Part shown: piece after piece, positions 20,460 through 60,236 of the stretch
How positions within the stretch are numbered: position 1 is the stretch's first letter
Layout of the letters: each line of letters begins with the position of its first letter
NCBI GenBank assembly: GCA_018818405.1
Contig: JAHIRY010000038.1
Location: forward strand, 35,449-99,448
Source: Patescibacteria group bacterium
GTDB taxonomy: Bacteria; Patescibacteriota; Patescibacteriia; UBA11705; JABHMO01
Length of the DNA: 64,000 nt
Direction: 5' to 3'
Program-made: the position numbers and the translations under genes
The notes under the pieces: model-generated
What the model was told of the DNA's origin: nothing
Databases searched by the model: none
The model's input: only the letters and a program-made list of their open reading frames with translations

Positions 20460-21308
20460 ATGACGAAAAGGCTTGTTCTGATTGATATTGATAATACTCT
20501 GGTCAACATTGATCTGGGATTTGACGGCTGTTCCGCCGACCAAATAAAAATCGCCTTGAGAAAAGCGATGTCAAGCGGACTGACGATAGGATTGCATTCG
20601 GATCGCCCCGCATTTGACCTGTTCGCGATTCACAAAAATCTGGGACTGAACGGTCCTATCATTGCGGAAAAAGGAAACATTCTTCACTTTCCTCCCAAAT
20701 GGGACATGGAGCCGAATCAAGATCACCGGTTTCTCATGTTTCAATTTCTAAAGACCGAACTTCTGAATATTCTGCTCACCGAATTTTCCGATATTGATGT
20801 ATTTGTCGGCAAAAATCAGAAAATGTTTCGCTTTCTGGCGCAAAACAGGCCGGCTGAAAATCGCAAAATTGTTCTGATCAATAATTACCGAAAGCTGAGT
20901 TTGGCTTTCAATGTGTGCGAGCAAGATCCTGAATCGGAAAATTTGTGCATGAATTTGGTGGAACAAACAGCCAAGATTATTCGCAACTTGTTCACTGCAA
21001 TCTTTGAACAAGAGCCGACAATAGAAATCTATCCGGCGACCAGAGCTTGCATCATCCATCTCCGCGATTCCCACAAACGCAATTCTCTGCCAAAACTCTT
21101 CAGACAATACGGCGCGGGACACAAAATTATTATGATCGGCGATTCGGCTTTTGATTTTCTCGGCAAAGACATCACTCACTGCGCAGTGGAAAACGCATCC
21201 GCCGAATACAAAGCTCTTTGCAACTTTATCGCGCAAAAAGACAGAACCTGCGGTGTGATTGAATGCCTGAAATGGATTCAACGAGGAGGCCACCATGGAA
21301 AAAGATAA
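20460..21308 (+). CDS. HAD-superfamily phosphatase (HAD-IIB/Cof-like)
   Basis: motif I LIDIDNTL (DxDxT), motif IV IMIGDSAFD; SD AAAGGAGG. Confidence 0.75.
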   Translation: MTKRLVLIDIDNTLVNIDLGFDGCSADQIKIALRKAMSSGLTIGLHSDRPAFDLFAIHKNLGLNGPIIAEKGNILHFPPKWDMEPNQDHRFLMFQFLKTELLNILLTEFSDIDVFVGKNQKMFRFLAQNRPAENRKIVLINNYRKLSLAFNVCEQDPESENLCMNLVEQTAKIIRNLFTAIFEQEPTIEIYPATRACIIHLRDSHKRNSLPKLFRQYGAGHKIIMIGDSAFDFLGKDITHCAVENASAEYKALCNFIAQKDRTCGVIECLKWIQRGGHHGKR

Positions 21309-22128
21309 ATTGATTCTCATTGATGTTGACGGAACATTGACCGACGCCTCGTATCAAATCACCGACTCCGGAATCACAAGAAAAATAATGGAAATGCAGA
21401 AACAAGGCTGGACAATCGGGCTGAACTCGGATACGCCGTTTTCTCGTTTGGAAGCAAGAGCGCGGGCTCTTCATTTGAATGGACTGCTCATCTGCGAGCT
21501 GGGCAACAGCATTCATCAAATCAATCCGACGCAACTGATTTGGGAAGAACGGCACAAAGAATCTTTTGCCGAGCTGAATGAAAGATTTCAAGAGGCTGCC
21601 AAAAAATCATTCCCGGAAATAATTCGCAGAGAAAACGACCTGAAATTTTCCCTCGAACGCTTCCGGAATGAATTGCTCCCACACGGATCCGAAATCTGGA
21701 TATTGCATCATGCATCCCGCCGGCACAGCTTTGCGTTTCAGCTGATAAAAAAAACGCCGAGAGGCGACATTTTCGTTGACAGACTCCTCATTCGACTGGC
21801 CGAATGCGCGCAACGGCTTTTCCTCGAAATTTTCCATAAAGAGCCGCTTGCCGATGTGAATCACAAATACGGGGTCTGCATCCTGCATCACAAAGATTCA
21901 CGCAAATCAAAAGCCGCGGCCGCCGTTTTCGCGATCCTCGGCTATGAAAAAATATATATGATCGGAGACAGCATGTCCGACTTTCTCAATCATCCATGCG
22001 TTGTGCAATGCGCGGTCGGCAATGCCTCAATCGAATACAAACGAGAATGCTCCATTGTTGCCAAAAATCACCTCGCCTCAGGTGTAATCGAATGCCTGGG
22101 GCAAATCAAAGAAATGAAAGACGAATAA
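21295..22128 (+). CDS. HAD-superfamily phosphatase, tandem paralog (overlaps the upstream gene by 14 nt)
   Basis: LIDVDGTL, YMIGDSMSD; colinear similarity to the 20460 protein. Confidence 0.75.
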   Translation: MEKDKLILIDVDGTLTDASYQITDSGITRKIMEMQKQGWTIGLNSDTPFSRLEARARALHLNGLLICELGNSIHQINPTQLIWEERHKESFAELNERFQEAAKKSFPEIIRRENDLKFSLERFRNELLPHGSEIWILHHASRRHSFAFQLIKKTPRGDIFVDRLLIRLAECAQRLFLEIFHKEPLADVNHKYGVCILHHKDSRKSKAAAAVFAILGYEKIYMIGDSMSDFLNHPCVVQCAVGNASIEYKRECSIVAKNHLASGVIECLGQIKEMKDE

Positions 22129-22133
22129 ACAAA

Positions 22134-22170
22134 AAAGCGCCGGACAATGTTCCGCCGCTTTTTCATTTTT
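22134..22170 (+). terminator. intrinsic terminator after the HAD pair
   Basis: AAGCGCCGG-ACAATGTT-CCGCCGCTT, T-run. Confidence 0.6.
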
Positions 22171-22269
22171 CGCTGATATTAAATAAACAAATTTCACGCA
22201 TGATTGACGTAAAAAAATGAAAATGATAAATTTCAAATGGAAATAACCTGCGCACAAGGAGGAAAAAGC

Positions 22270-22923
22270 ATGCGCAATGCGAAATTTGTTCCGGTCATTC
22301 TTTTCTTTGCGGCGACCATGTTCGCCGCTTGCACAGACGAAAATGACAATTCGAAAAAAAAAGCAAGCGAAGGTGAAGCAGAATCGGTCGGCTCGATGAC
22401 AATCATTTCCATGCCGGTGGAAGACGCGGAAATCATTCTCAATGAAGAGGAAACCGGCCACCGCACGCCGCAGACTTTTCACAATCTTTCGCTCGGTCTT
22501 CACCAAATAGAACTGAAACTCGCCGGTCGGCGGCAAGCTGATATTCCGCTGGCGGTTTCTCTGACCGCCAAGGAGGAAGACTCCGATACTCCGCAATTAT
22601 TGAATGTTGAAATTTTCCTGTACCGAGAACTCTCGGGGGGATGGAAAGATGAATCCGGCGCGCGCGTCGAGGCGGAAATGGAAATTGTGACCGAGGAATA
22701 TGAATATCTGTGTCCTGACACGCCGCTCAGCGTTCGCGGATTCGATCCTGTCGGATCGCTCTGCGTGGAAAAAGACGATACGCTCTCACTCTGCAAAACG
22801 CATGACGCGAAATGCGGCGAGCAGTTTGCTCAAGGCAGGATCGCTGATGACGGCAATGTCGTGGAATTCACGGTAGCCGAATCTGAAAAAGTGATTCGCT
22901 ACACCAGACTCCCGACAATGTAA
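22270..22923 (+). CDS. lipoprotein with PEGA-like beta-sandwich domain (ORF from 22237; SD indicates the 22270 start)
   Basis: signal plus lipobox FAAC; MTIISMPVEDAEIILNEEETGHRTPQTF...HQIELKL PEGA-like pattern; paralog of 24046. Confidence 0.7.
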   Translation: MRNAKFVPVILFFAATMFAACTDENDNSKKKASEGEAESVGSMTIISMPVEDAEIILNEEETGHRTPQTFHNLSLGLHQIELKLAGRRQADIPLAVSLTAKEEDSDTPQLLNVEIFLYRELSGGWKDESGARVEAEMEIVTEEYEYLCPDTPLSVRGFDPVGSLCVEKDDTLSLCKTHDAKCGEQFAQGRIADDGNVVEFTVAESEKVIRYTRLPTM

Positions 22924-22954
22924 TCCGCGCGCAAACGCGCAATCAACTGAAAAA

Positions 22955-22990
22955 CCCGCGAACGCGCAGAGCGTCGCGGGAATTTTTTTT
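22955..22990 (+). terminator. intrinsic terminator
   Basis: CCCGCGA-loop-TCGCGGG hairpin, T8. Confidence 0.6.
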
Positions 22991-23030
22991 AAGTGAAACT
23001 ATTTATAAACCTGCGCCCCGATCAGCGAAA

Positions 23031-23250
23031 CTACGACGACAGCAGACTCTGAATCGAGTTCAGAGTGACAGGTGTGGGGCGCGAATTACTAACAATTGCA
23101 ATGAACCTCGAATAGTTGCCACAGTTTCGCAAATACGCAAATGCACAGTTACTCTTACTCCGTCGTCGGCTCTCCCATCGTCACTCTGAACTCGATTCAG
23201 AGTCTGCTTCCGGTTCGCTTAGTCGATTCGCTTACAATGTCGTCATCGCG
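23031..23250. repeat. palindromic repeat family R4, units a (inverted) and b (direct) (core CGTCACTCTGAACTCGATTCAGAGTCT plus ~45-nt tail)
   Basis: 23045-23069 and 23178-23250 are mutually inverted copies; core is itself a 9-bp-stem hairpin. Confidence 0.8.
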
Positions 23251-23267
23251 CAACAACTCACATACCG

Positions 23268-23573
23268 CTAATTCCACGTTGCGCTCAAATCTTCAAAATT
23301 AGGATTTTCCTTTTTTATCAAATCAATTTTCCACGGCCGATGCCATCGCTTCAATTGTTTTTCTCTGGCAATGGCAGAATACACATCCGTAAAATCCTCG
23401 TAATAAACTAATTTTTGTAAACAATAACGAGCGCTGAATGAATTTGGATTGTATTTATTTTTGTGTTCCCACAAACGCCGCTCAACATTGTTCGTCACGC
23501 CAATATAAAAAACCGTATTCCTTGTGTTTGTAATAATATATACATAATAATTACGTTGAACAAATTTTCGCAT
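23268..23573 (-). CDS. small GIY-YIG nuclease (YhbQ/COG2827-like)
   Basis: YVYIITNTRNTVFYIGVTNNVERRLWEH GIY-YIG core; 101 aa; paralog of 33838. Confidence 0.8.
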   Translation of the reverse strand: MRKFVQRNYYVYIITNTRNTVFYIGVTNNVERRLWEHKNKYNPNSFSARYCLQKLVYYEDFTDVYSAIAREKQLKRWHRPWKIDLIKKENPNFEDLSATWN

Positions 23574-23676
23574 ATCATTTTTTAAATCATGCTAACTAAT
23601 ACTTTCAGAATAGCACAATTTTTTTTCGACCGGAATAAACAACGAAACAATCGCGCCTTCGTTCAGCGAAACTTCC

Positions 23677-23905
23677 GACGCTAACAGACTCTGAATCGAG
23701 TTCAGAGTGACGGGGTGCGGCGCGTCGTCTCATCATCATCATGATTATCCTCGTCACTCTGAACTCGATTCAGAGTCTCCCTCCGGTTTCACCTAGTCGG
23801 TTCCGCTACGACAGCGTCCGCCCGCCCCTCCTCATCGTCACTCTGAACTCGATTCAGAGTCTCTTTTCGGTTTCGCTTAGTCGATTCGACTGCAACGGCG
23901 TCGCG
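23677..23905. repeat. repeat family R4, units c (inverted), d and e (direct, tandem)
   Basis: 23677-23712, 23749-23819, 23833-23905 share the CGTCACTCTGAACTCGATTCAGAGTCT core and tail. Confidence 0.8.
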
Positions 23906-24045
23906 AAACATTCGTCTGCCGTGTACAGGCGTCACAAACGCAAACATTCCCGTAAATTTACACGCAACCTTGACAAAAACCAAAGCAAATGATATATTCG
24001 GCATAGAAAGAAATCACATGGCGATTTAAACAAGGAGGTGTAGCC

Positions 24046-24756
24046 ATGAAGACGAGAACCATGTTTCTCTGTGTCCTGTTCCTTTTTTTGACAACCGTAG
24101 CCGCATCCTGCGGCGAAGACCCCACCAACGCGCCGGGCGAAGGCGAAGGCGAAGGCGAAGGCGAGGGTGAAGGCGAGGGCGAAGGCGAAGGCGAGGGCGA
24201 AGGCGAGCAGCTCGGCTCGCTTACCGTCACCTCCGCGCCGCACGACGGCGCGCAGATCATCATGGATGGCGTGGACACCGGATTCGTCACCCCGCACACG
24301 TTCGACGAGATCAGTGTGGGACGGCACGAGGTCGAGCTCAAGCTCGACGGCCGGATCCAGGCCTACATCCCGCAGGAGGTCGTCCTGACCTCCGGCAAGG
24401 AAGACAGCACCGTGCCGCCAAGCGCCACGGCCGAAATCTTTCTGTATCTGGATCTGACGGGAAAATGGTATGAAGCGGAAATAAATCGGACGACCGAAGC
24501 AGTGGTTTTCCCAAGTGCCAGACTCCAACAACCGGAAATCTCCTGCCCAACCACGGAGATGGCGGCAGGCAAATTTCCCCTATACAACACACTGTGCATC
24601 GAGAGAGACGACTCTCTCTCTCTCTGCAAAGACCATGCCAGCGACTGTTATGGAGCCGAAGTCCGCGGCTCCGTTCAGGAAAACGGCACGAAGATCGAAG
24701 TCACAGATTTCTTTTTTTCTCCGCCGAGGGTACTACACTACACTCTGGTGCAGTGA
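24046..24756 (+). CDS. PEGA-domain lipoprotein paralog with (GE)13 low-complexity linker, strikingly GC-rich (~60%)
   Basis: signal plus lipobox AASC; LTVTSAPHDGAQIIMDGVDTGFVTPHTF aligns colinearly with the 22270 protein; SD AAGGAGG. Confidence 0.75.
   Translation: MKTRTMFLCVLFLFLTTVAASCGEDPTNAPGEGEGEGEGEGEGEGEGEGEGEGEQLGSLTVTSAPHDGAQIIMDGVDTGFVTPHTFDEISVGRHEVELKLDGRIQAYIPQEVVLTSGKEDSTVPPSATAEIFLYLDLTGKWYEAEINRTTEAVVFPSARLQQPEISCPTTEMAAGKFPLYNTLCIERDDSLSLCKDHASDCYGAEVRGSVQENGTKIEVTDFFFSPPRVLHYTLVQ
24136..24207 (+). repeat. (GGCGAA/GGCGAG)n hexanucleotide tandem repeat encoding (GE)n
   Basis: about 11-12 tandem hexamers seen directly. Confidence 0.85.
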
Positions 24757-24794
24757 ACTGCTCTATAGTGTAGTAGCATTTGGCCAATCAAAAA

Positions 24795-24826
24795 CTCCCA
24801 CCGTCAAGAACGGTAGGAGTTTTTTT
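24795..24826. terminator. bidirectional intrinsic terminator between convergent genes
   Basis: CTCCCACCGT-CAAGAA-CGGTAGGAG, T7. Confidence 0.65.
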
Positions 24827-24831
24827 AATTG

Positions 24832-27800
24832 CTACGGTAATACTATAATTTTTCCATCGAAAGAAGTCCCCGGCTCTCCGTGCTCATCCAGTGGATCACA
24901 CAATGGAAAATCACCTTCATTATAACACCCATCCGCACCCCCGCACGTCCCATTACACCACCCCCAATTATCCGTCACAATCACCCGCGGAATATACTGG
25001 CAGGCGGGATTGCCTTGGTATGTTGTTCTGCAGTAATTCGGGTCTGCGCCGGCAGTGCCGCAATCCTTCAAAACAGGATCAGACAAATTACAAGTATAAG
25101 TATTATTGTAAGAGAAATACGATTCCATGCATGCATCAGTCGTGTCGCCGAAACGATCATCCTTTTGATCGGAACATTTCCCGGTGAAGAAACATCTGCT
25201 CGGATCGCTTCCCTCTTCACATCGCGGATCGTCAGCATCATAGCACGCGGAATCATCAGAGCAAGCCAGACCGGAAACTCCGTTGCATATTCCCAACGGT
25301 TCATTGGCCGGTCTCTGACATCGAGGCTTATGATTTTGGTACTTTCCATCAACGCCCACTCCCTGAACTCTCTCACCCCAATCGATCGTCACATTTCTTA
25401 TCGGCATCTGATCATCATTCGCCCAAGCATAGAAATTCATTGTCACTGCCAACTGACCATCCAGACTTACAATATCGCCGCTCGTCTGTCCGCGAATGGT
25501 CATCGTATTGGGAATAGCGCCATACAAAACATTTCCTTTCGCGTCAGACCTGCCACTGGGTATTGCGGCCGCAATCATCGGAACACCGACTTTTTGCTCA
25601 TTACTGATATCCCAAATTTTATTAGGATTATTCAAGTAGCCTATTCCATCGGCATTGCTCGGAATGTTAATAATATTTGAGCAGGATGCGCTCGGATCGC
25701 TTTTCATTTCCGGAGGATTTGTCGCGACCACTTCTTTTAGAATAACCGTGCCGACATACCCAAATGGAGTATGCTCATATTTTTCTATTGGGCAACTATT
25801 ATTCTCCAATGTCCTGCCGACATAACATTCCGCAGATATTTCCTGCTGTGCAAAGTTATAACTGTCTATGAAAAGCCAATGTTCTGCCAAAATGCTCCGA
25901 TCAGCTTTCTGCCATATGCAATTCGCCTCATTGCGTTCAATATTTGGCAAATTGGCAGTGCAATAAACACGATTTCCAGCATTGCCGACTACCGGAGCGG
26001 TATTCACACATTCGGTATCCCAGAAGCAAGGATTGCCGGAATTCGCTCCCGATTGATTATTGCAATGGCGAAGAGTAAGAATATTGCATTCCAACGGATA
26101 TTGAGCGGTTGTACAAACATTTGAATCACTGGTGCAAGACAATCCGTTTATTTCAGGATGAATGCTGGTGCAGGTTTTTTCTTCAATATTTTGAATTTTC
26201 ATTTCGTAATAAGTCTTTGCCGCAGCAAAATACTTTTTCAAAGCATCAATACTTTGATAAACAATTCCGCCCTCAGGATAGTTCTCTTCCTGATTGCACC
26301 CAGCACCCAAAAATAAATTGTAAATAGTCTCGCCAATACCGCCCGTCAATGCCAAGGCTCCAAGCGGATTGCACTTTGGCTGATCAGGAATTTGAACGGA
26401 TTTATAAATTTCATTAGTAAATGCTTTGTTTTTTCCATTCTCATCGGATACTCCGACAGCAGTATCACAGCTTTGCTTTGATATTTCGCCGATCGCCGCA
26501 TTCGTATTGCCGGCTGCATCCTTGTACCAGCCAGCCGATTGATCAGCGGGCATATTTATCGGTTTACATTGATATGTCATTTTAAACCAATCTTCATCCT
26601 CTAGGCTACACTCATCTGTAGCGCCATCATGGTCGAATATACCGCCATCATGTTCGAATGAATTCGCTCCGCCGATATTATAATTCTTATCACAACTGGG
26701 ACGTTCAAACTTCTCGCCACCGCAATCTCTGGTCCAACAAGATGCTGTATTTCCAATGCCTCCAAACGGATCAGTATTCGCATTAATTGTTCCGGCTGAA
26801 ACATTGGAGCTTCCCACCAAGCGATCCCATAATTTGTCCGCTGTCCACCGAGTATAAACATTTGGATTGCCGCTCACGCAAGCGGAACCGTTTCCATCGC
26901 ATTCTATTCCGGCAGTACTGGAAGCTAGGCCGGCCGGCAAACAATTTTCACGAACTTCTTTTGTTTCTCCATTACACGCATCCAGAGCCCCTCCATCGCA
27001 ATCCCTATACCCTTCTTCCGTTTGATTATAATTCTGTCTCTTTTCCCAATTACTGCTTTTCAGACAATAGTAAGGACTGCCATCGCTAAATCCATAATCT
27101 TGCGGCCAGAAGCCGGCGGAATCATATTGATTCTGCAAATCCTGCAATCCGGCCAACGCTTCCGTCGGATACCAAGTAATGCAAGGATGTTCTTCTTGTT
27201 TGTTATTTTTCGGCAGACTGATGTCCTCTTGCAGACAATATCCTTCCCAGCCATGATAATCTATGGCAGTGCCTTTCTTTTTCATGCATAACCCCGGTTC
27301 ATTTCCTTTTGAGATAGGTTTTGAAGAATTGAGAGAACACTGGATAGAAGAACACATTGTTTTATTATTTATCTTTACCATGGGAGAACTATCAATTTGC
27401 GGATAATCAAAATCATCGCACTGACATTGAATATCAGGTGAATCCTGACAAAAGCCTTGTTCCGGATCTGCTGGCGAATATAATTCTGTTTTCGGCACAT
27501 ATTTTGTGATCGCCCCACCACCATATTGAACCTCTCGATAATAACAACCGTAGTCTTCATTTTTATTAATTTCCGCAAAATCCACATCCAGCCAAGAAAT
27601 ATTCGCGTTTACGTATAAATCAGTGCCTGCAATACCGGCTGGAAACGGCGAATCATCCTTCGGATAAGCACGGCATTCCGGAGCTGCAGCTTCTTGAAAT
27701 GTTCTTTCTGATTCCGAGGTCTGCACACAAATTCCACTCAAACATCGACAATTTTCTCCGCTTGGATTTGCAACAGTACAAGCATCCGTGCAATCACTAT

Positions 27801-30800
27801 CCTGTTCACAAGAGGTATCGGTTAATTGATTTACCAATCTAAAATCTTTTTCTTTATAAACTTGCCCGCGAACTTCTTCACAACTAACGACTGCCTCAAT
27901 CCTGCAAATATTGCCTAAGGAAATGCAGTTTCGTCCTCCGCTACAATCATCGGCTGCTTCGCAACGGCCATATTCTCTTTCTCCACCGCAATAACTTCCG
28001 CAATCAGCATCCGTGGAACACAACCCTTCGTTCGGATTACCAAAACAATATTGTTGACCGCAATCATTGTCATTCACACAAAGATTGCCTGAAGTTACTC
28101 CTCCGCATCTCTTGTCCGGTTCAACCCCGCGTCCCTGCCTCAAATCAAAAGAATTATAAAAATTTACCGGCGCCATATCCGGAATCGCCATTCCGGTATA
28201 ATCGAGCGAAGACCAGCTGACATTTCTATTCTGATAACCGTCAGTTTCATCCGTTCCCTTCAAAGGTTTGTTCAATGACAATAAATTATTATTATCTTCA
28301 CCGACAATGAAATGCGCGCACTTCAATGTATCTTCCGCCGGACTGAGCTTGTCGCAAACTCCGACATCATCGCAAACCTCAATATATTTATTTTTATTCG
28401 AATCCCACGCCCAGTGACTGGACTTGCAATCGTACCAAGCCGCGCATTCGCGATCGCGGACGACTTTTACTATGGAATTCGCATCATTTTTTGAAGCAAT
28501 CAATTCAAATGTACAGGCAATCTGTCTATCAGTACATGTATTAATCTGCTCGGCGCGCGCTTCTCCTGCGCAAGTCAAATAATCTTTTTCAGCATTCACA
28601 CAAGATTCGACTTTTTTACAATAATCATCTTCAGTACAATCACCCACCCGCCCCAGAGCATAACTATCAAACGTCGAAGCATTCTTTGGCGGAACAGCAC
28701 TTTGTTTATCATTTCCTTCAAAATATGTTAAATATCCCTGCCATTTCAAATCAGGTTCGCCATTGGCATTTAACATAGAGGTATCATTCATCAAAATACA
28801 ACCTTCTTTACGACTGACATCTGAACAGGAAGTCTTGTCTATGTCTTCATTATTAACATAATAATAAGCTTTTCCTTTGTCTGACAAAGTTTTATCAGTG
28901 GGATCCACGAACGCGGTGCACAAATCCGCGCTTGACTTGCAGATACCGGCCCAGCCTGAGAAATCTTCATCATTTATTCGAATAATCTGCGAATTTCCAT
29001 CTTCATAATAATTCTTTGTCTCGCATAGTACATCCGGATCATTATCATTCAGTTTCTTTTTGAACCATCCAAATATACTCTCAGAACCTTGCTGAGCTTT
29101 TCTGTATTCGCAAGTTTTATCACCCGGATCCTTAAAATAATAAGTTTCACCTTTTACTCCCTTGAATTCCTCACATCTCAAATCACTATTAGCGCACAGA
29201 GGACTGTTCTCACTATCAAAAGTATCAGGATCCAGTTTGTAAAATACATTGTTCCATTTGTCCTGGGATGGAATATAATTCCCCTCAGCATCCACCATCA
29301 AAGTCGGCAATCCCAGAGCCGTACAACCCTTTTCCGTGTTTTTACATTGTTTATCTTTTGTGTTAACGAGATAAATCAATGAATCTTTTTCTATTTCTTG
29401 AAGGTAGCAGACACCATCGTTCCAATTTCCATCCAAATAACCACACATGTTTTCATAAGTCTGTGAAAGAGCGGGAGGTTCACCGCCAACCTTTGCACGA
29501 ACTTGGAATGTACATGCTTGCAAATTTTCATTCACAACGGCTGCAGTTCCCGGTATCTGGAAAAAATTATTCGTTGGAACTGCCTCCCATTTACTCATAT
29601 AAGAGGAACACAATTCAACATTCAACGGAATTTTCTTGTATCCTTGTTCAAATGGAGACGAACTGTTCTTCGTATCAATCATCGTCTCGCAACCGACCTT
29701 GTCAGCCGAACAGATATTGGTAAAGTTTTTCAGATAATGAGTATTCTTGCCGCTGTCGCGATATTCGCGGCAACCCAGCTGAGCTTGCGGAATTTGTCTG
29801 TCAGCTTCATTTGCCGGAGTATGGGTCAGCTCATTGTCGCAGATCGCCGGAGTACTCCATGAATTTTTGATTAAATATTTGAGATCATTTACTTTTGTGA
29901 TTTTGAAATTGTCGATGTAAAAAGTTCTTTCGCACTGGGACGCGCGTATGCCTATAACACCGGAGGCATAAGTCTCATCCACACTCAAATTAAAAGTATG
30001 AAACTGCCAATCAGCATTAACCGTGCCGTCACCCAATAAAAATTTTCGATCTCCGGTGTTTATATTTTCAACCGGCCTCACATCAACATTGAAATTCGTG
30101 GGATCGCCTTTGATCCAAAAAGAAACAACATAATCACCGACTGCTGATAAAAGCGCATTTTTTGTATATATTCTTGGTGATTCAACACAACTCAATCCCT
30201 CAATCCCGTTAACAGACTCTATTTCAGTCTTCTCTTCCACCATTAAATACTGCCCATCCGCTTGTGTCGTAAGCGACATTGGACTTCCTTGCAAACTAGT
30301 TACCTCTCCGGTCGCAAAATTATTCTCATAAACAATTTCCTCATCACCGCTGAAATTGCCTTTGTATTCTCTGCAGCCGGCGGCAGGCGCTGAACATTTC
30401 TTGCCTTCGCCCGGAATTGCCATGAAAACGCATTCGCCAGTGTTCCACTGCCCCTGCCTCAGTTCGCATTGAGCCTGATCCGCGTATTGCAATGTTCGGC
30501 GATAAGGATGACAATTTTCCGAACAAGTCAGAGTCTTTGAATACAAACGATAAGAAACTCTGCCGGCATCATCGTAAAATTCACGGCAGTCGGGATTTGA
30601 TTTTACAGCGAATATTTCCGCGTTGCACCGGGTTAGATTTTCTTCCTCTGCAATCGTCATTGCCGGAGCATTTCCTCCGAGTTCTTTTTTCAATACATAA
30701 TTCTGCAATTGATAACCGGAAACTCCGCCTCCGACCCAAGTATAATAATTGGCGCACTGAGCCTCGCCCTCGGGAAGTTTCTGGCATTGCCTCAATTCGG

Positions 30801-33753
30801 AATAATATTCTTTTGATTCTCCGCCTCGCGACAATTCATCCAGATTGGTAAATTCATCGCATCCGGCGCTGGCCGCGCTGCAAGTTTTTGCAGTATTCGG
30901 CATGAAATAAAGCGGAAACTCTCCATTTTCAAAATAAGTTTTCGACTGGTTGAATGTCGCATAGCCAGCGCATTGCTGAGGACAATAATCCGCGAATCCG
31001 GCAACGCCGTTGATAGCGCGTCCGCGATCAGTCGGCGTGAAATTCTGACAGCCGACATCTTCGGCAGAACAAAGTCCGGCAAAATCAGAACAGCCTTTGT
31101 TTTTCTCGGTTTTTACCGCATCATCGGAAACATCAATATCAGCCTCAGTCTTCGGCCTGCCATAATCCGCCTCTTCAATTGTATTGTAGCAACCCAAATA
31201 TTCAGGCGCTTTTTTCACATAAACAACATTCTGGCTGGCATATTCATTGAATTCATGCATTTCGGAAATTGCCGGCAGAGAAAGTTCCTCAACCATTACA
31301 TTGTCCACGATCGCGTCTCCGCCGGCCACAGCCAATTGAAATTGCAACTTGTCAAGTACGATTGGATTCGCTCCGGTCGATACTTTCACTTGCCAAATTT
31401 TATAAATTTTTTCCCAGCTGTCCGTTGCTGTCGCCGCTGTAATATCTTTATTGGCAACAGCTGACATGGCCAATCCATCTGCATCGGGAGCAACCAATTC
31501 GATCACTGCCGACGCATTGGCCTGTTTCTTTTTCACAAACCCGGAAACCGCAAAATATCGGGCTGTTTTCTTTGGCGCGATTTCAATATTCGGAATAATT
31601 AAATTTTCCAAAGCGGCTAATTTAACGGCCGCTCCTCCTTCATAAGACTCGGAAACCACATTTTTCCCGCCCGCCCAGCCGGTGACAATGTTCGTTGATT
31701 GCAATTCATCAATTCTCCCTGAAAAAATTTCAAAATCTCCGTTTACCACCAGATTCGTTCCCAATCCGCTCGCTGTTTTCACAAATCTCGTGCAACCCTC
31801 TTGATTCGGATTGCATTGCGCGTTTTCGATATTTTTATTCAATAAAATTTTTGAAGCATCCGCGTCCACCCAATTCCAAGAATTATCCGCCAATATTTTC
31901 TCAGTGCTGTACCACTTGCAACCCGCGTTCGTCGCGTCGCAAACCGATCGATCGACAGTGTTCATCACCAAATTAACGGATTTTCCCTTCCTCATCTGCA
32001 AAGAACGGCAACTGTCATAAACGCCCGAACATTCATCTCCGCCCAATCGGAAAACATTTTTCTCAGCCGCGCAATATCCCCAGGAAAGACACTTGCCCTT
32101 TGCATCAGTGCGCACACAGCTCGGCATATCAACGCAGACTTCAGCTCGAGTGTTCGAACCCGCGTCAATCAACAATGGTCCGTTAACCAACGCATTGCAT
32201 TGCGTTGCCGGATATTTCAAAATCCAATTCGGATCAATCAACTGCCTGAATTTATAACCCGCGTCATTTGGATTAGTTTGATTGAATTGACTGATTACAT
32301 AATTCAATGAGACAACTTCTTCCGAACCAACCTGACTGGCGGCAAGCTCCCAGCCGATTGGAATTATTCTCGCTGTTCTCAGTTTCACCAAATTGGAATA
32401 ACAAAAACCGTATTGATAGCAATCGGCATTGGAATTTCTCGCATCATACTTTCCGATCAAACGGCGCTTGCCGTCAATCAGTCCCTGATCAATGGCCTCC
32501 TGCACTGACAGCGGCTTGTCCTGAGTTGAACGGCGAACAGCATCGGCAAACGCATTATCCATGACGCAATTGTTTATCTGCCTTGTCCGGGGACAAGAGG
32601 TATATTCAGTCAATAAATCAATTTGCTTGGTGGAATAAGTGAAATTAACCTGCTTTATTTTTATTACGTCTTTTTCCACCTGCTTTTTCGTATCAAACAT
32701 ATTGTCAGCCGGCTGATAACTCTCCGAAGTTTGCACCAATCCCTTTTCAAAAAACTTCTTGCTCATGAAGTCAACAAATCCTTTTGAAATAAAAGTATTA
32801 ACAAAAGCGCCGATTACCGATTCCGGTATATCGGAAATCACATAACTGGCCGGTTCCATTTCAGTATTCTTCGCCTCGGTAATTGCTTGCAGTTCGTTTG
32901 TCATGTGTCCGCGCAAAAGGAAAGAAGGCGTTTTTATAATATCGCCACTCAGACTGGTTATCGCCTTTGCTCCTAAATTTTCCGTTCTTTGCTTTTCTTC
33001 CGCCATGCTTGTAATGCGCTGTTGTCTCTGCAATTCATCTTCCATTGTCAGATACATCCCGATGTCAGAACTTTTGCGATCAAACTTCACTTCAATGATT
33101 CTCTGCAATGCGATAAGAGTACCGGCGGCCGGATTATCAGAAATATTATCAGCTGTTCGTTTAACATCCTCGACAAATGATTCCCAATTATCTAACAAAT
33201 TACTTAAAGAACAATCCGGTTTTACCCTTGTTTTATCTTTTAGATATTGATTATCCAAACCAATAACGATTTTCAATTTTACATCAGCTCCGGGATCGCA
33301 AATATCAAATCCCAAATCATCCCAAAATACATCTCTGACATAGGTAATGAATGTCGCTGCCGTGTAATCCATTATATCCTGCTTGAATTTTTCCCACGAC
33401 TGAGTGTAAAACATCGGTCCCTCGCCCTTGTCGCCGGTAGTGACAAAATTATAATATTGAGACGCCGCTGTTTGCGCCAGAAAAACCATAGTATTGCGCA
33501 AAGTAATGGCTGCGGATAAAATCAATGCTTTCTGCAAACGATTTTCCACATTTTTTTGAGTTTTATCAACCGTTTTCTCAATGTTGCGCTTGACTTCAAA
33601 ACCCATATCCTGCGCATTTTTAGCGGGATCAATGACCGGCAATTCAGCGCGAGCCTCTCGCGGGAACAACATGCCGGCAGCAATGAAATTTGAAAACGCA
33701 AAACAAAACACCAAAATCGCGATTGATATTTTTTTGTTTTTATTTAAAGTCAT
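24832..33753 (-). CDS. giant (2973 aa) Cys-rich secreted/surface protein with CBM4/9-like beta-sandwich segments
   Basis: uninterrupted 8.9-kb ORF; N-terminal signal/TM; many Cys; NGDFE...GW CBM-like blocks. Confidence 0.85.
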   Translation of the reverse strand: MTLNKNKKISIAILVFCFAFSNFIAAGMLFPREARAELPVIDPAKNAQDMGFEVKRNIEKTVDKTQKNVENRLQKALILSAAITLRNTMVFLAQTAASQYYNFVTTGDKGEGPMFYTQSWEKFKQDIMDYTAATFITYVRDVFWDDLGFDICDPGADVKLKIVIGLDNQYLKDKTRVKPDCSLSNLLDNWESFVEDVKRTADNISDNPAAGTLIALQRIIEVKFDRKSSDIGMYLTMEDELQRQQRITSMAEEKQRTENLGAKAITSLSGDIIKTPSFLLRGHMTNELQAITEAKNTEMEPASYVISDIPESVIGAFVNTFISKGFVDFMSKKFFEKGLVQTSESYQPADNMFDTKKQVEKDVIKIKQVNFTYSTKQIDLLTEYTSCPRTRQINNCVMDNAFADAVRRSTQDKPLSVQEAIDQGLIDGKRRLIGKYDARNSNADCYQYGFCYSNLVKLRTARIIPIGWELAASQVGSEEVVSLNYVISQFNQTNPNDAGYKFRQLIDPNWILKYPATQCNALVNGPLLIDAGSNTRAEVCVDMPSCVRTDAKGKCLSWGYCAAEKNVFRLGGDECSGVYDSCRSLQMRKGKSVNLVMNTVDRSVCDATNAGCKWYSTEKILADNSWNWVDADASKILLNKNIENAQCNPNQEGCTRFVKTASGLGTNLVVNGDFEIFSGRIDELQSTNIVTGWAGGKNVVSESYEGGAAVKLAALENLIIPNIEIAPKKTARYFAVSGFVKKKQANASAVIELVAPDADGLAMSAVANKDITAATATDSWEKIYKIWQVKVSTGANPIVLDKLQFQLAVAGGDAIVDNVMVEELSLPAISEMHEFNEYASQNVVYVKKAPEYLGCYNTIEEADYGRPKTEADIDVSDDAVKTEKNKGCSDFAGLCSAEDVGCQNFTPTDRGRAINGVAGFADYCPQQCAGYATFNQSKTYFENGEFPLYFMPNTAKTCSAASAGCDEFTNLDELSRGGESKEYYSELRQCQKLPEGEAQCANYYTWVGGGVSGYQLQNYVLKKELGGNAPAMTIAEEENLTRCNAEIFAVKSNPDCREFYDDAGRVSYRLYSKTLTCSENCHPYRRTLQYADQAQCELRQGQWNTGECVFMAIPGEGKKCSAPAAGCREYKGNFSGDEEIVYENNFATGEVTSLQGSPMSLTTQADGQYLMVEEKTEIESVNGIEGLSCVESPRIYTKNALLSAVGDYVVSFWIKGDPTNFNVDVRPVENINTGDRKFLLGDGTVNADWQFHTFNLSVDETYASGVIGIRASQCERTFYIDNFKITKVNDLKYLIKNSWSTPAICDNELTHTPANEADRQIPQAQLGCREYRDSGKNTHYLKNFTNICSADKVGCETMIDTKNSSSPFEQGYKKIPLNVELCSSYMSKWEAVPTNNFFQIPGTAAVVNENLQACTFQVRAKVGGEPPALSQTYENMCGYLDGNWNDGVCYLQEIEKDSLIYLVNTKDKQCKNTEKGCTALGLPTLMVDAEGNYIPSQDKWNNVFYKLDPDTFDSENSPLCANSDLRCEEFKGVKGETYYFKDPGDKTCEYRKAQQGSESIFGWFKKKLNDNDPDVLCETKNYYEDGNSQIIRINDEDFSGWAGICKSSADLCTAFVDPTDKTLSDKGKAYYYVNNEDIDKTSCSDVSRKEGCILMNDTSMLNANGEPDLKWQGYLTYFEGNDKQSAVPPKNASTFDSYALGRVGDCTEDDYCKKVESCVNAEKDYLTCAGEARAEQINTCTDRQIACTFELIASKNDANSIVKVVRDRECAAWYDCKSSHWAWDSNKNKYIEVCDDVGVCDKLSPAEDTLKCAHFIVGEDNNNLLSLNKPLKGTDETDGYQNRNVSWSSLDYTGMAIPDMAPVNFYNSFDLRQGRGVEPDKRCGGVTSGNLCVNDNDCGQQYCFGNPNEGLCSTDADCGSYCGGEREYGRCEAADDCSGGRNCISLGNICRIEAVVSCEEVRGQVYKEKDFRLVNQLTDTSCEQDSDCTDACTVANPSGENCRCLSGICVQTSESERTFQEAAAPECRAYPKDDSPFPAGIAGTDLYVNANISWLDVDFAEINKNEDYGCYYREVQYGGGAITKYVPKTELYSPADPEQGFCQDSPDIQCQCDDFDYPQIDSSPMVKINNKTMCSSIQCSLNSSKPISKGNEPGLCMKKKGTAIDYHGWEGYCLQEDISLPKNNKQEEHPCITWYPTEALAGLQDLQNQYDSAGFWPQDYGFSDGSPYYCLKSSNWEKRQNYNQTEEGYRDCDGGALDACNGETKEVRENCLPAGLASSTAGIECDGNGSACVSGNPNVYTRWTADKLWDRLVGSSNVSAGTINANTDPFGGIGNTASCWTRDCGGEKFERPSCDKNYNIGGANSFEHDGGIFDHDGATDECSLEDEDWFKMTYQCKPINMPADQSAGWYKDAAGNTNAAIGEISKQSCDTAVGVSDENGKNKAFTNEIYKSVQIPDQPKCNPLGALALTGGIGETIYNLFLGAGCNQEENYPEGGIVYQSIDALKKYFAAAKTYYEMKIQNIEEKTCTSIHPEINGLSCTSDSNVCTTAQYPLECNILTLRHCNNQSGANSGNPCFWDTECVNTAPVVGNAGNRVYCTANLPNIERNEANCIWQKADRSILAEHWLFIDSYNFAQQEISAECYVGRTLENNSCPIEKYEHTPFGYVGTVILKEVVATNPPEMKSDPSASCSNIINIPSNADGIGYLNNPNKIWDISNEQKVGVPMIAAAIPSGRSDAKGNVLYGAIPNTMTIRGQTSGDIVSLDGQLAVTMNFYAWANDDQMPIRNVTIDWGERVQGVGVDGKYQNHKPRCQRPANEPLGICNGVSGLACSDDSACYDADDPRCEEGSDPSRCFFTGKCSDQKDDRFGDTTDACMESYFSYNNTYTCNLSDPVLKDCGTAGADPNYCRTTYQGNPACQYIPRVIVTDNWGWCNGTCGGADGCYNEGDFPLCDPLDEHGEPGTSFDGKIIVLP

Positions 33754-33781
33754 TTGATTTTATATTTATGATTTTATTAAT

Positions 33782-33860
33782 GTCGCACTTCGACAAGCTC
33801 AGTGTGACAGGGGGGGGGAAGCGCCCCCTCTCACTTGTCAGGCTGAGCCTGCCGAAGCCC
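33782..33860. repeat. repeat family R5 (inverted unit, G9/C5 hairpin, partial direct unit), downstream of the GIY-YIG gene
   Basis: GTCGCACTTCGACAAGCTCAGTGTGAC, AGGGGGGGGGAAGCGCCCCCT, CTGAGCCTGCCGAAG. Confidence 0.75.
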
Positions 33861-34143
33861 CGTTCGACAACTCCTTCAATCTTTCAATATTCCCCTCAAT
33901 TAATGCAACTTTCTTTCTGCGGCTCCAACCTTTTATTTGTTTTTCTCTGGCGATCGCGTCATTCACATAATAATGTTCTTCCGCATATACCAATCGAACC
34001 GGCCGCCGCGAATATGTATAACTTTTTTCGCTTATTCCCAAATTATGTTCATCCAGCCTTCGTTCAATATTATTTGTTATTCCCGTATACAAACTCCGAT
34101 CGCTGCATTCAACTATATAAACCGTGTATATCTTTCTAAACAT
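33838..34143 (-). CDS. small GIY-YIG nuclease, second paralog (ORF to 34167; likely start is MFRKIY at 34143)
   Basis: YTVYIVECSDRSLYTGITNNIERRLDEH GIY-YIG core; C-terminus is read through the R5 repeat. Confidence 0.8.
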   Translation of the reverse strand: MFRKIYTVYIVECSDRSLYTGITNNIERRLDEHNLGISEKSYTYSRRPVRLVYAEEHYYVNDAIAREKQIKGWSRRKKVALIEGNIERLKELSNGASAGSA

Positions 34144-34160
34144 TTGCAATAAACTTTTAT

Positions 34161-34311
34161 GTCGCACTTCGGCAGGCTCAGTGTGACATGAATTTAACTG
34201 TCACACTGAGGCTAAAAGCCTGTCCCGAGTCGCATCGAGCGGAAGCGTGCTATCATCGTCATCGCAATAACTGTCACACTGAGCCTGCCGAAGTGCCGCT
34301 TCGCTTAACAC
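34161..34311. repeat. repeat family R5: one inverted and two direct units (GTCACACTGAGCCTGCCGAAGTGC...TTCGCTTAACAC)
   Basis: 34161-34187 (inverted), 34200-34222, 34273-34311; 11-bp stem between the first two. Confidence 0.8.
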
Positions 34312-36180: not shown

Positions 36181-36238
36181 CGGAAATGTGGAATTGTAAG
36201 GGTTCAACATGTTGAACCCTTACAATTCCACATTTCCG
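36181..36238. repeat. 58-bp perfect palindrome (29-bp arms) between prfB and rsmA
   Basis: CGGAAATGTGGAATTGTAAGGGTTCAACA|TGTTGAACCCTTACAATTCCACATTTCCG verified base by base. Confidence 0.9.
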
Positions 36239-47526: not shown

Positions 47527-47669
47527 TCGTTTCATGGCGGTGTAGAGACGCATTGCAATGCGTCGCTACATCGCCATGAAGCGATGACGGCGGCGTGTGT
47601 TTTGTCGCGACAATATACGGCGCGGCGGTAAGTAGCGGCGGGTCTAGACCCGCCGCTACTTACCGCCGC
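47527..47669. repeat. GC-rich nested palindromes: a 9-bp outer stem enclosing an 18-bp perfect palindrome, plus a separate 48-bp perfect palindrome
   Basis: TTCATGGCG...GACGCATTGCAATGCGTC...CGCCATGAA; GCGGCGGTAAGTAGCGGCGGGTCT|AGACCCGCCGCTACTTACCGCCGC. Confidence 0.85.
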
Positions 47670-60067: not shown

Positions 60068-60185
60068 CGTCACACTGAGCCTGCCGAAGTGCGCATTCGC
60101 CTAAAACGCCATCACCGCCCGTCACGCTGAGCCTGCCGAAGCACGCTCTTCTCTGTCACGCTGAGCCTGCCGAAGCGCACCTTCA
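60068..60185. repeat. three direct R5 units (GTCAC[A/G]CTGAGCCTGCCGAAG...TTCGCCTAAAAC), remote from any GIY-YIG gene
   Basis: units at 60068, 60121, 60157; same family as 33782-34311. Confidence 0.8.
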
Positions 60186-60236
60186 CTTAAACGTCGCCCA
60201 CATATTACCGCAAACATTCACTTCCGTCAAGATCCC

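Follow-up and report, generated by a model that had tools for sequence, protein, structure and literature searches.

A gene for a single-domain GIY-YIG nuclease lies between two paralogous PEGA lipoprotein genes in the genome of a Patescibacteria group bacterium (assembly GCA_018818405.1, contig JAHIRY010000038.1, positions 35,449 to 99,448), surrounded by five copies of a short hairpin repeat, R4 (Table 1). We refer to the whole stretch of DNA that was analysed, 64,000 nucleotides (64 kb), as the window. The product of the gene, 101 amino acids long, matches PF01541 over residues 8-83 (E=1.4e-16) and contains no other domain, and NCBI annotates the identical protein as 'GIY-YIG nuclease family protein'. 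Its AlphaFold model consists of one compact GIY-YIG domain (pLDDT 89.3, pTM 0.81), and aligning 20 homologues showed no variation at Y12, Y23, G25, R33, H37, E71 or N90. The two flanking genes encode proteins that are 33% identical (E=7e-40), PEGA1 scoring 20.6 bits for PEGA, slightly below the 20.8-bit cut-off. An earlier note, made from the letters of this DNA, had described both the gene and its position between PEGA paralogues; both descriptions hold, the latter with PEGA1 just under threshold.

Table 1 Features of the nuclease-repeat locus and related features of the window
Feature	Position	Strand	Basis or remark
GIY-YIG nuclease gene, ssn type (101 amino acids, single domain)	23268..23573	-	PF01541, SsnA homology, conserved residues, AF2 model
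Unit A, X type	23013..23083	-	Core 26-mer 23044-23069; GTCA head at 23069, minus-strand reading; single-stranded hairpin of 8 bp with 5-nt loop
Unit B, Y type	23172..23255	+	Core 23180-23205; tail toward the ssn stop codon; inner downstream partner of the cassette
Unit C, X type	23653..23724	-	Core 23686-23711, on the ssn coding strand; head 138 nt before the start codon; inner partner on the upstream side of the cassette
Unit D, Y type	23748..23818	+	Core 23753-23778; head-to-head with C
Unit E, Y type	23828..23910	+	Core 23837-23862; tandem with D, 84-nt period; followed by T-rich run
Repeat string for copy counting, GTCACTCTGAACTCGATTCAGAGTC			Alongside class pattern GTCANNCTGAAN5TTCAGNNTC
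PEGA1, PEGA-like lipoprotein paralogue 1 (left neighbour, outside the system)	22237..22923	+	PEGA profile, paralogy
PEGA2, PEGA lipoprotein paralogue 2 (right neighbour)	24046..24756	+	PEGA profile, paralogy; promoter-like site 23970-23998
Second GIY-YIG mini-nuclease gene	33838-34143	-	Window-wide repeat search; PF01541 E=2e-18
TTCGCTTA-like boxes	23213-23240, 23790-23815, 23874-23895, 34297-34306, 60094-60102, 60180-60188

The 21-mer at the heart of the repeat, ACTCTGAACTCGATTCAGAGT, occurs at exactly five sites in the window, 23046(-), 23183(+), 23688(-), 23756(+) and 23840(+), where its chance expectation is zero; outside the locus the window holds none, even with up to three mismatches. 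These are the two inverted and three direct copies around the gene that had been described before. Aligning the five units revealed an invariant 26-mer block, GTCACTCTGAACTCGATTCAGAGTCT, within which the non-palindromic GTCA and TC flanks are identical in all five. Written by parts, the unit reads CGTCA-CTCTGAA-CTCGA-TTCAGAG-TC and contains a perfect 8-bp stem (ACTCTGAA/TTCAGAGT) with a 5-nt loop, which is both the minimum-free-energy and the centroid structure of all five units as single-stranded DNA (ssDNA). The hairpin core proposed in the earlier note therefore stands, except for a ninth C-G pair, which is actually a C/C clash (C-ACTCTGAA...TTCAGAGT-C).

Local alignments gave a unit length of 70-84 nt with two tail subtypes, X and Y: units A and C agree in their head-side flank and in their tail, and units B, D and E share a different tail. 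Units A and B lie 3' of the gene and C, D and E 5' of it, all at most 340 nt away. Pairs of units form long inverted repeats, as had been suggested, with head-to-head arms of 29 nt (100% complementary) in A/B and 30 nt (97% complementary) in C/D, and the C+D pair has an alternative 30-bp ssDNA hairpin (-35.8 kcal/mol, z = -8.5).

Could the hairpins simply be transcription terminators or RNA regulators of the neighbouring genes, with the nuclease gene there by coincidence? All units are intergenic, and unit E, with its T-rich run after the hairpin, is the sole terminator-like one. We nonetheless consider this very improbable, as a U-tract is missing from four of the five, both orientations are present and the GTCA and TC flanks are invariant without being palindromic. 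PEGA1, moreover, has a separate terminator hairpin of its own at ~22955-22993, and an Rfam scan of positions 22000-25000 gave nothing relevant.

A published family of proteins offers a closer match. Ssn proteins (Chenal et al. 2025, Nat Commun 16:2388; PMC11893778) are single-domain GIY-YIG nucleases of ~94 amino acids (CDD cd10448) whose genes are flanked by oriented hairpin repeats, named in general SRM, for Ssn-related motifs; in Neisseria the SRM is the NTS, CGTCATTCCCGCGMAVGCGGGAATCYRG, which numbers in the hundreds and is clustered around surface-protein genes (PMC11893778). SRMs were reported with 71% of ssn genes (PMC11893778). For SsnA of N. meningitidis and three homologues, the hairpin is bound only as ssDNA and the forward strand alone is cut, a few nucleotides 5' of the motif, with no activity on duplex DNA or RNA; SsnA does not bind RNA either (PMC11893778). 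Cutting depends most on the three bases 5' of the palindrome, that is, the GTC of the head, and binding on the C directly after the palindrome, while changing the stem sequence with the structure kept abolished activity in N. meningitidis (PMC11893778). The catalytic residues of N. meningitidis SsnA are Y6, Y17 and E64, and the operational criterion for an Ssn is a BLASTP match to that protein at E<1e-10 with at least 75% query coverage (PMC11893778). The published SRM search string, HGTCWYN(0-2)YYVSBRHN(0-5)WNVSBRGN(0-2)RNCYNB, was assembled manually using 29 genomes from 4 phyla; Patescibacteria are not mentioned (PMC11893778).

The window protein falls within this family. A tblastn search of a 7.3-Gb plasmid collection matched it (E=2e-14) to a gonococcal chromosome mislabelled as a plasmid, which encodes a 94-amino-acid orthologue of SsnA (NZ_CP119140.1; L043:1489-1773, where L numbers denote fetched loci) with Y6, Y17 and E64 as in N. 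meningitidis and nine canonical NTS within ~1 kb of its gene. By BLASTP, the window protein and this N. gonorrhoeae SsnA are 42% identical over 86 amino acids (E=8e-24; residues 5-89 of 94, 90%), within the published limits if the gonococcal orthologue is taken as a close proxy for meningococcal SsnA. Y12, Y23 and E71 align with Y6, Y17 and E64, and at 101 amino acids the protein is of Ssn size (single domain, <150 amino acids). The repeats agree as well: oriented hairpins with a GTCW head and a following C flank the gene on either side at distances of no more than 500 bp (those nearest at most 150 nt away), and CGTCA-[stem]-loop-[stem']-TC is the same frame as in the NTS, with the post-palindrome C in all five units. 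As in Neisseria, the repeats occur in both orientations and in tandem, beside surface-protein genes. The window locus differs in its A/T-richer stem ACTCTGAA, which lies outside the published string, in its units of 70-84 nt with two tail subtypes, and in its Patescibacteria host. Family membership and motif frame are thus direct observations, and we regard it as probable (roughly 0.8) that the locus is an Ssn-family nuclease gene with its cognate SRM in a genome of the Candidate Phyla Radiation (CPR). The functional tie between a mini-nuclease and its surrounding repeat that the earlier note had proposed corresponds, through protein homology and motif frame, to Ssn/SRM; a claim of novelty for this architecture does not survive, as the architecture had already been published (PMC11893778).

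The same comparisons bear on two other origins for the protein. It could be a housekeeping nuclease of the YhbQ/UPF0213 type next to unrelated repeats, a reading to which we give very little weight. The closest PDB folds to the AlphaFold model are UPF0213 protein BH0048 (the best, Foldseek E=2.9e-4), Slx1, HIGLE and the UvrC N-terminal domain, in a comparison for which no solved Ssn structure existed; fold and size are those of the UPF0213 structures 1zg2 and 1ywl, and JGI labels homologues 'putative endonuclease'. In sequence, however, these structures match only marginally by phmmer (1zg2, E=0.095; 1ywl, E=0.27), compared with E=8e-24 for SsnA, and a repeat association is undescribed for UPF0213, whereas the gene-repeat link recurs across homologues of the window protein. 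By sequence comparison, the relation to UPF0213/YhbQ appears to be at the superfamily level only, and the label 'YhbQ-like' in the earlier note is apt to that extent.

Also very improbable is a free-standing homing endonuclease of the classical GIY-YIG kind, cutting a duplex target. The gene looks compositionally foreign, with a GC content of 34% compared with 47-50% in the flanking intergenic DNA, 47-58% when the PEGA genes are included and 43.6% in the window, and TIGR01453, a model of group I intron endonucleases, matches it weakly and in part. That match covers the GIY-YIG motif only (residues 11-46) and, at 23.1 bits, is far below the 56-bit cut-off. With 101 amino acids, the protein also lacks the C-terminal DNA-binding domain of I-TevI-type enzymes, and its closest characterised relatives spare duplex DNA (PMC11893778).

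To place the repeat, we surveyed 17 loci from several phyla that encode relatives of the window protein. In 14 of the 17, hairpins of the form GTC-A[stem]loop[stem']T-C lie no more than 200 nt from the gene, a gene-repeat link that is observed directly. This recurrence across phyla, together with the absence of RNA binding by SsnA (PMC11893778), further disfavours terminators. The published SRM string matched beside proteobacterial homologues with 40-52% protein identity, namely those of Rhizobium, Azospirillum, Sphingobium, Photobacterium, Aeromonas and Neisseria. Most homologues with at least 54% identity, which come from Patescibacteria, Gastranaerophilales and metagenomes, are accompanied by A-NN-CTGAA stems (L035, L038, L040, L047), and one locus has a single such stem plus a ATTCCGAAC variant (L037). 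The Planktothrix locus (L044, 56% identity) is an exception, with long-loop hairpins in place of A-NN-CTGAA.

The stem was also examined for covariation. We collected from all fetched DNA every instance of the anchor GTCA-NN-CTGAA-N5-TTCAG-NN-T-N, in which two stem pairs and the base after the stem are free. In 78 of 83 instances both free pairs were Watson-Crick, with six dinucleotide types represented, and the count remained at 35 of 40, against ~2.5 expected, once the search-selected CT/AG type was removed. The base after the stem was C in 81 of the 83. Because the free pairs covary, as observed directly here, and the post-stem C is kept, we assign the window repeat to a low-GC class of SRM, GTCA-NN-CTGAA-N5-TTCAG-NN-TC, which is under selection for the hairpin and for NTS-like flanking bases.

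Several results weigh against reading the locus as an Ssn gene with its cognate SRM. The published string has zero matches in the window, the five units failing in the left arm, and the A-NN-CTGAA units beside close low-GC homologues never match it. Because the string misses these units and the stem change in N. meningitidis abolished activity, specificity of the protein for the A-NN-CTGAA stem can only be presumed, by analogy. The SsnA comparison used the gonococcal proxy and not the N. meningitidis protein itself, and the cleavage biochemistry comes from four homologues, none a Patescibacteria member. R4 is, moreover, confined to its locus, with no other copy in the window compared with hundreds of NTS in Neisseria, leaving a genome-wide role like that of the NTS unsupported here. 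The earlier note had held that such confinement, combined with the lack of a sequence-specific interaction between protein and repeat, would speak against a link between the two; confinement is what we found within the window, yet a sequence-specific interaction is documented in four homologues (PMC11893778). As for the string, it is a search aid and not a definition, and it is too narrow. Since it misses the low-GC class, the figure of 71% published for ssn genes with SRMs is probably too low. A literature search for the hairpin strings returned no matches.

Read as an Ssn/SRM pair, the locus suggests how the protein would act. When DNA carrying the units becomes single-stranded, for example in replication, uptake during transformation or repair, the strand GTCA-ACTCTGAA-loop-TTCAGAGT-C would fold into the 8-bp hairpin; the protein would bind it in a sequence- and orientation-specific manner and hydrolyse this strand a short distance (a few nucleotides) 5' of its GTCA head, while the complementary strand, duplex DNA and RNA would not be substrates. 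Cleavage restricted to ssDNA and to one orientation is likely, by analogy with the four tested homologues, and on the same basis we infer that the window protein cuts these five sites, with A and C as minus-strand and B, D and E as plus-strand sites. Cuts are predicted in the spacers between the heads of A/B and of C/D because the paired heads sit on opposite strands. Read in the direction of the gene, the inner pair is C -> gene <- B: the GTCA heads face away from the gene and the tails face it. Of the homologue loci, 7 of 17 show this layout, more than any other single one; at the Neisseria and Azospirillum loci the heads point inward. The unrelated locus L040 repeats the entire arrangement, [<-A][B->] gene [<-C][D->][E->]. 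The cell's benefit would, most likely, be control of the recombination of incoming ssDNA around the surface-protein cluster, semi-selfish upkeep of the cassette, or both.

Another reading overlaps with the Ssn/SRM assignment, and we think it possible but unlikely: a mobile system, like REP/RAYT (repetitive extragenic palindromes and their associated tyrosine transposases), insertion sequences (IS) or miniature inverted-repeat elements, in which the nuclease mobilises units or doublets and the cassette, either by copying that it triggers or by homing into doublets already present. GIY-YIG enzymes are hydrolytic and form no covalent strand-transfer intermediate, which counts against it. The Ssn authors themselves draw the comparison with REP/RAYT and call the inverted-repeat cassette IS-like (PMC11893778), so the parallel in the earlier note is a fair analogy, with the reservations that the enzyme is hydrolytic, that transposition or homing has been demonstrated for no Ssn and that no R4 copy lies elsewhere in the window. 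Both systems have one small nuclease gene among short hairpin-repeat copies, form inverted doublets, carry a conserved 5' tetranucleotide (GTAG in REP, GTCA here) and recognise the hairpin in ssDNA, which for the window protein is expected by homology. They differ in that a GIY-YIG hydrolase takes the place of the HUH Y1 tyrosine transesterase, TnpA-REP, and in that the repeat is not dispersed within the window. IS200/IS605 TnpA similarly recognises imperfect hairpins in ssDNA and cleaves nearby, and its small gene is flanked by hairpins; there, however, both hairpins are on one strand and the enzyme is an HUH transposase, whereas the inner pair here is on opposite strands and the enzyme hydrolytic.

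Copies of the core elsewhere bear on mobility in both directions. The exact 21-mer is found in 33 loci of genome and metagenome contig collections (22 + 11), one of which (L023) is the ENA copy of the window locus. Its hosts include metagenome-assembled genomes (MAGs) of Gastranaerophilales, the isolate Profundicola chukchiensis, other Flavobacteriales and one Chloroflexota MAG, and the core usually sits there beside same-frame hairpins with other stems. No ssn gene was detected at these loci by tblastn and a family hidden Markov model other than in L023, the fetched loci being 1.2-14 kb long, and the viral contig collection held 3 homologue loci only. In Profundicola and Gastranaerophilales the core forms doublets and arrays that lack the gene, as a mobile system might leave behind, and the repetition of [<-X][Y->] gene [<-X][Y->] here and in L040, together with the low GC content of the gene, would also fit. 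Against this, the inner-pair layout is found in 7 of 17 loci only. We set aside the identity of the 21-mer across phyla as evidence of horizontal transfer: as the fixed frame allows only ~100 variants, its recurrence across phyla is expected. MAG contigs labelled 'Alphaproteobacteria' or 'Bacilli' carry the Gastranaerophilales long unit (L008, L017 and L011, compared with L001, L003, L006, L012 and L021), suggesting mis-binning or mislabelling, so the number of phyla with the 21-mer is inflated.

Unit number differs between assemblies. In the ENA assembly, which encodes identical proteins, the locus spans two contigs that overlap in unit E (L023:1-1150, L045:1-110) and has seven units compared with five in the window, the extra two being a tandem B', with a G-to-T change in the stem of its core, and a tandem D'. 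One Logan contig breaks off exactly inside the unit B core (L057:3400-3435); these other assemblies of the organism thus break at the repeats. Unit number is therefore either variable in the population or unreliably assembled; although a difference of five versus seven units beside identical proteins could reflect mobility, the extra units are tandem, and unequal recombination or assembly error could account for them. No empty site turned up for comparison, which also counts against mobility: PEGA1 has no non-identical homologue in a set of 5.8 billion proteins, and identical copies of PEGA1, PEGA2 and the nuclease were found only in further assemblies of this organism.

A window-wide search for repeats uncovered a second locus of the same design. 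The second GIY-YIG protein is 40% identical to the first and 35% to SsnA, and it is much closer than the first to the UPF0213 structures (E=8e-11 for 1zg2). Its gene is accompanied by a different repeat family, GTCA-NN-CTGAG-CCTGCC-GAAG-NN, with copies at 33808(-), 33837(+), 34187(-) and 34273(+) (region 33785-34296), laid out as [<-][->] gene [<-][->] as at the first locus, and the NN positions of this family covary (CA/TG, CG/CG, GG/CC). A gene-less cluster of three more copies at 60069-60193, 26 kb away, is a further point in favour of mobility. Should the second protein belong to cd10456 and not cd10448, association with hairpins would no longer be limited to the Ssn clade as published, and, if the association is true, hairpin-directed ssDNase function would extend to YhbQ-type proteins.

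The two nuclease-hairpin loci (23013-34296) bracket PEGA2 and a cysteine-rich open reading frame (ORF) of 2973 amino acids (24832-33753). This bracketing recalls the NTS around Neisseria surface-protein genes, here with two different hairpin families, and may be coincidence. A bolder and distinctly speculative version of the mobile reading, to which we give still less weight, is that A-NN-CTGAA hairpins and their GIY-YIG partner form a mobile cross-phylum family, in which the cassette [Y-> ssn <-X] homes into gene-less doublets [<-X][Y->] after nicks in the spacer on each strand, and that two systems bracketing a giant surface-protein cluster might shape its recombination in natural transformation. 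If such a family were real, Ssn/SRM would be the GIY-YIG counterpart of RAYT/REPIN.

Other features of the repeats and of the surrounding DNA were also observed. The Y-type tails of this genome's two repeat families carry a TTCGCTTA-like box, placed 10-17 nt 3' of the hairpin; X-type tails have TTCGCTGA in its place, and the box is not found in same-core units of other genomes. The ORFs of several homologues (P0007, P0013, P0033, P0053, P0063), like the second window gene (33838-33862), run into the downstream hairpin, giving C-termini such as DPETSSG or GASAGSA; their TGA stop codon is complementary to the GTCA head. In the Planktothrix agardhii plasmid p1 (NZ_LR882964.1; L044:1300-2000), the ssn homologue sits between an MmeI-type restriction-modification gene and DISARM drmA, and its long-loop GTCA hairpins include GTCATTCTGAGTGAAACGAAGAATC and another containing GCGAAGC. 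The heptamer d(GCGAAGC) forms a very stable DNA mini-hairpin. Directly upstream of PEGA1 are tandem HAD (Hydrolase_3) paralogues with a 14-nt overlap (20460-22128), and the window also contains perfect spacerless palindromes at 36181-36238 (58 nt) and 47622-47669 (48 nt).

The locus reveals no new principle. Modestly new are its CPR host, a hairpin class missed by the published string and the fact that one window holds two distinct nuclease-hairpin pairs. Ssn/SRM nuclease-hairpin pairs are thereby extended to Patescibacteria, and any further Ssn-hairpin pair might also serve as a reagent that cleaves ssDNA in a sequence-specific way. An episymbiont with a tiny genome and two such pairs beside surface-protein genes would be a reasonable place to study the role of Ssn outside Neisseria.

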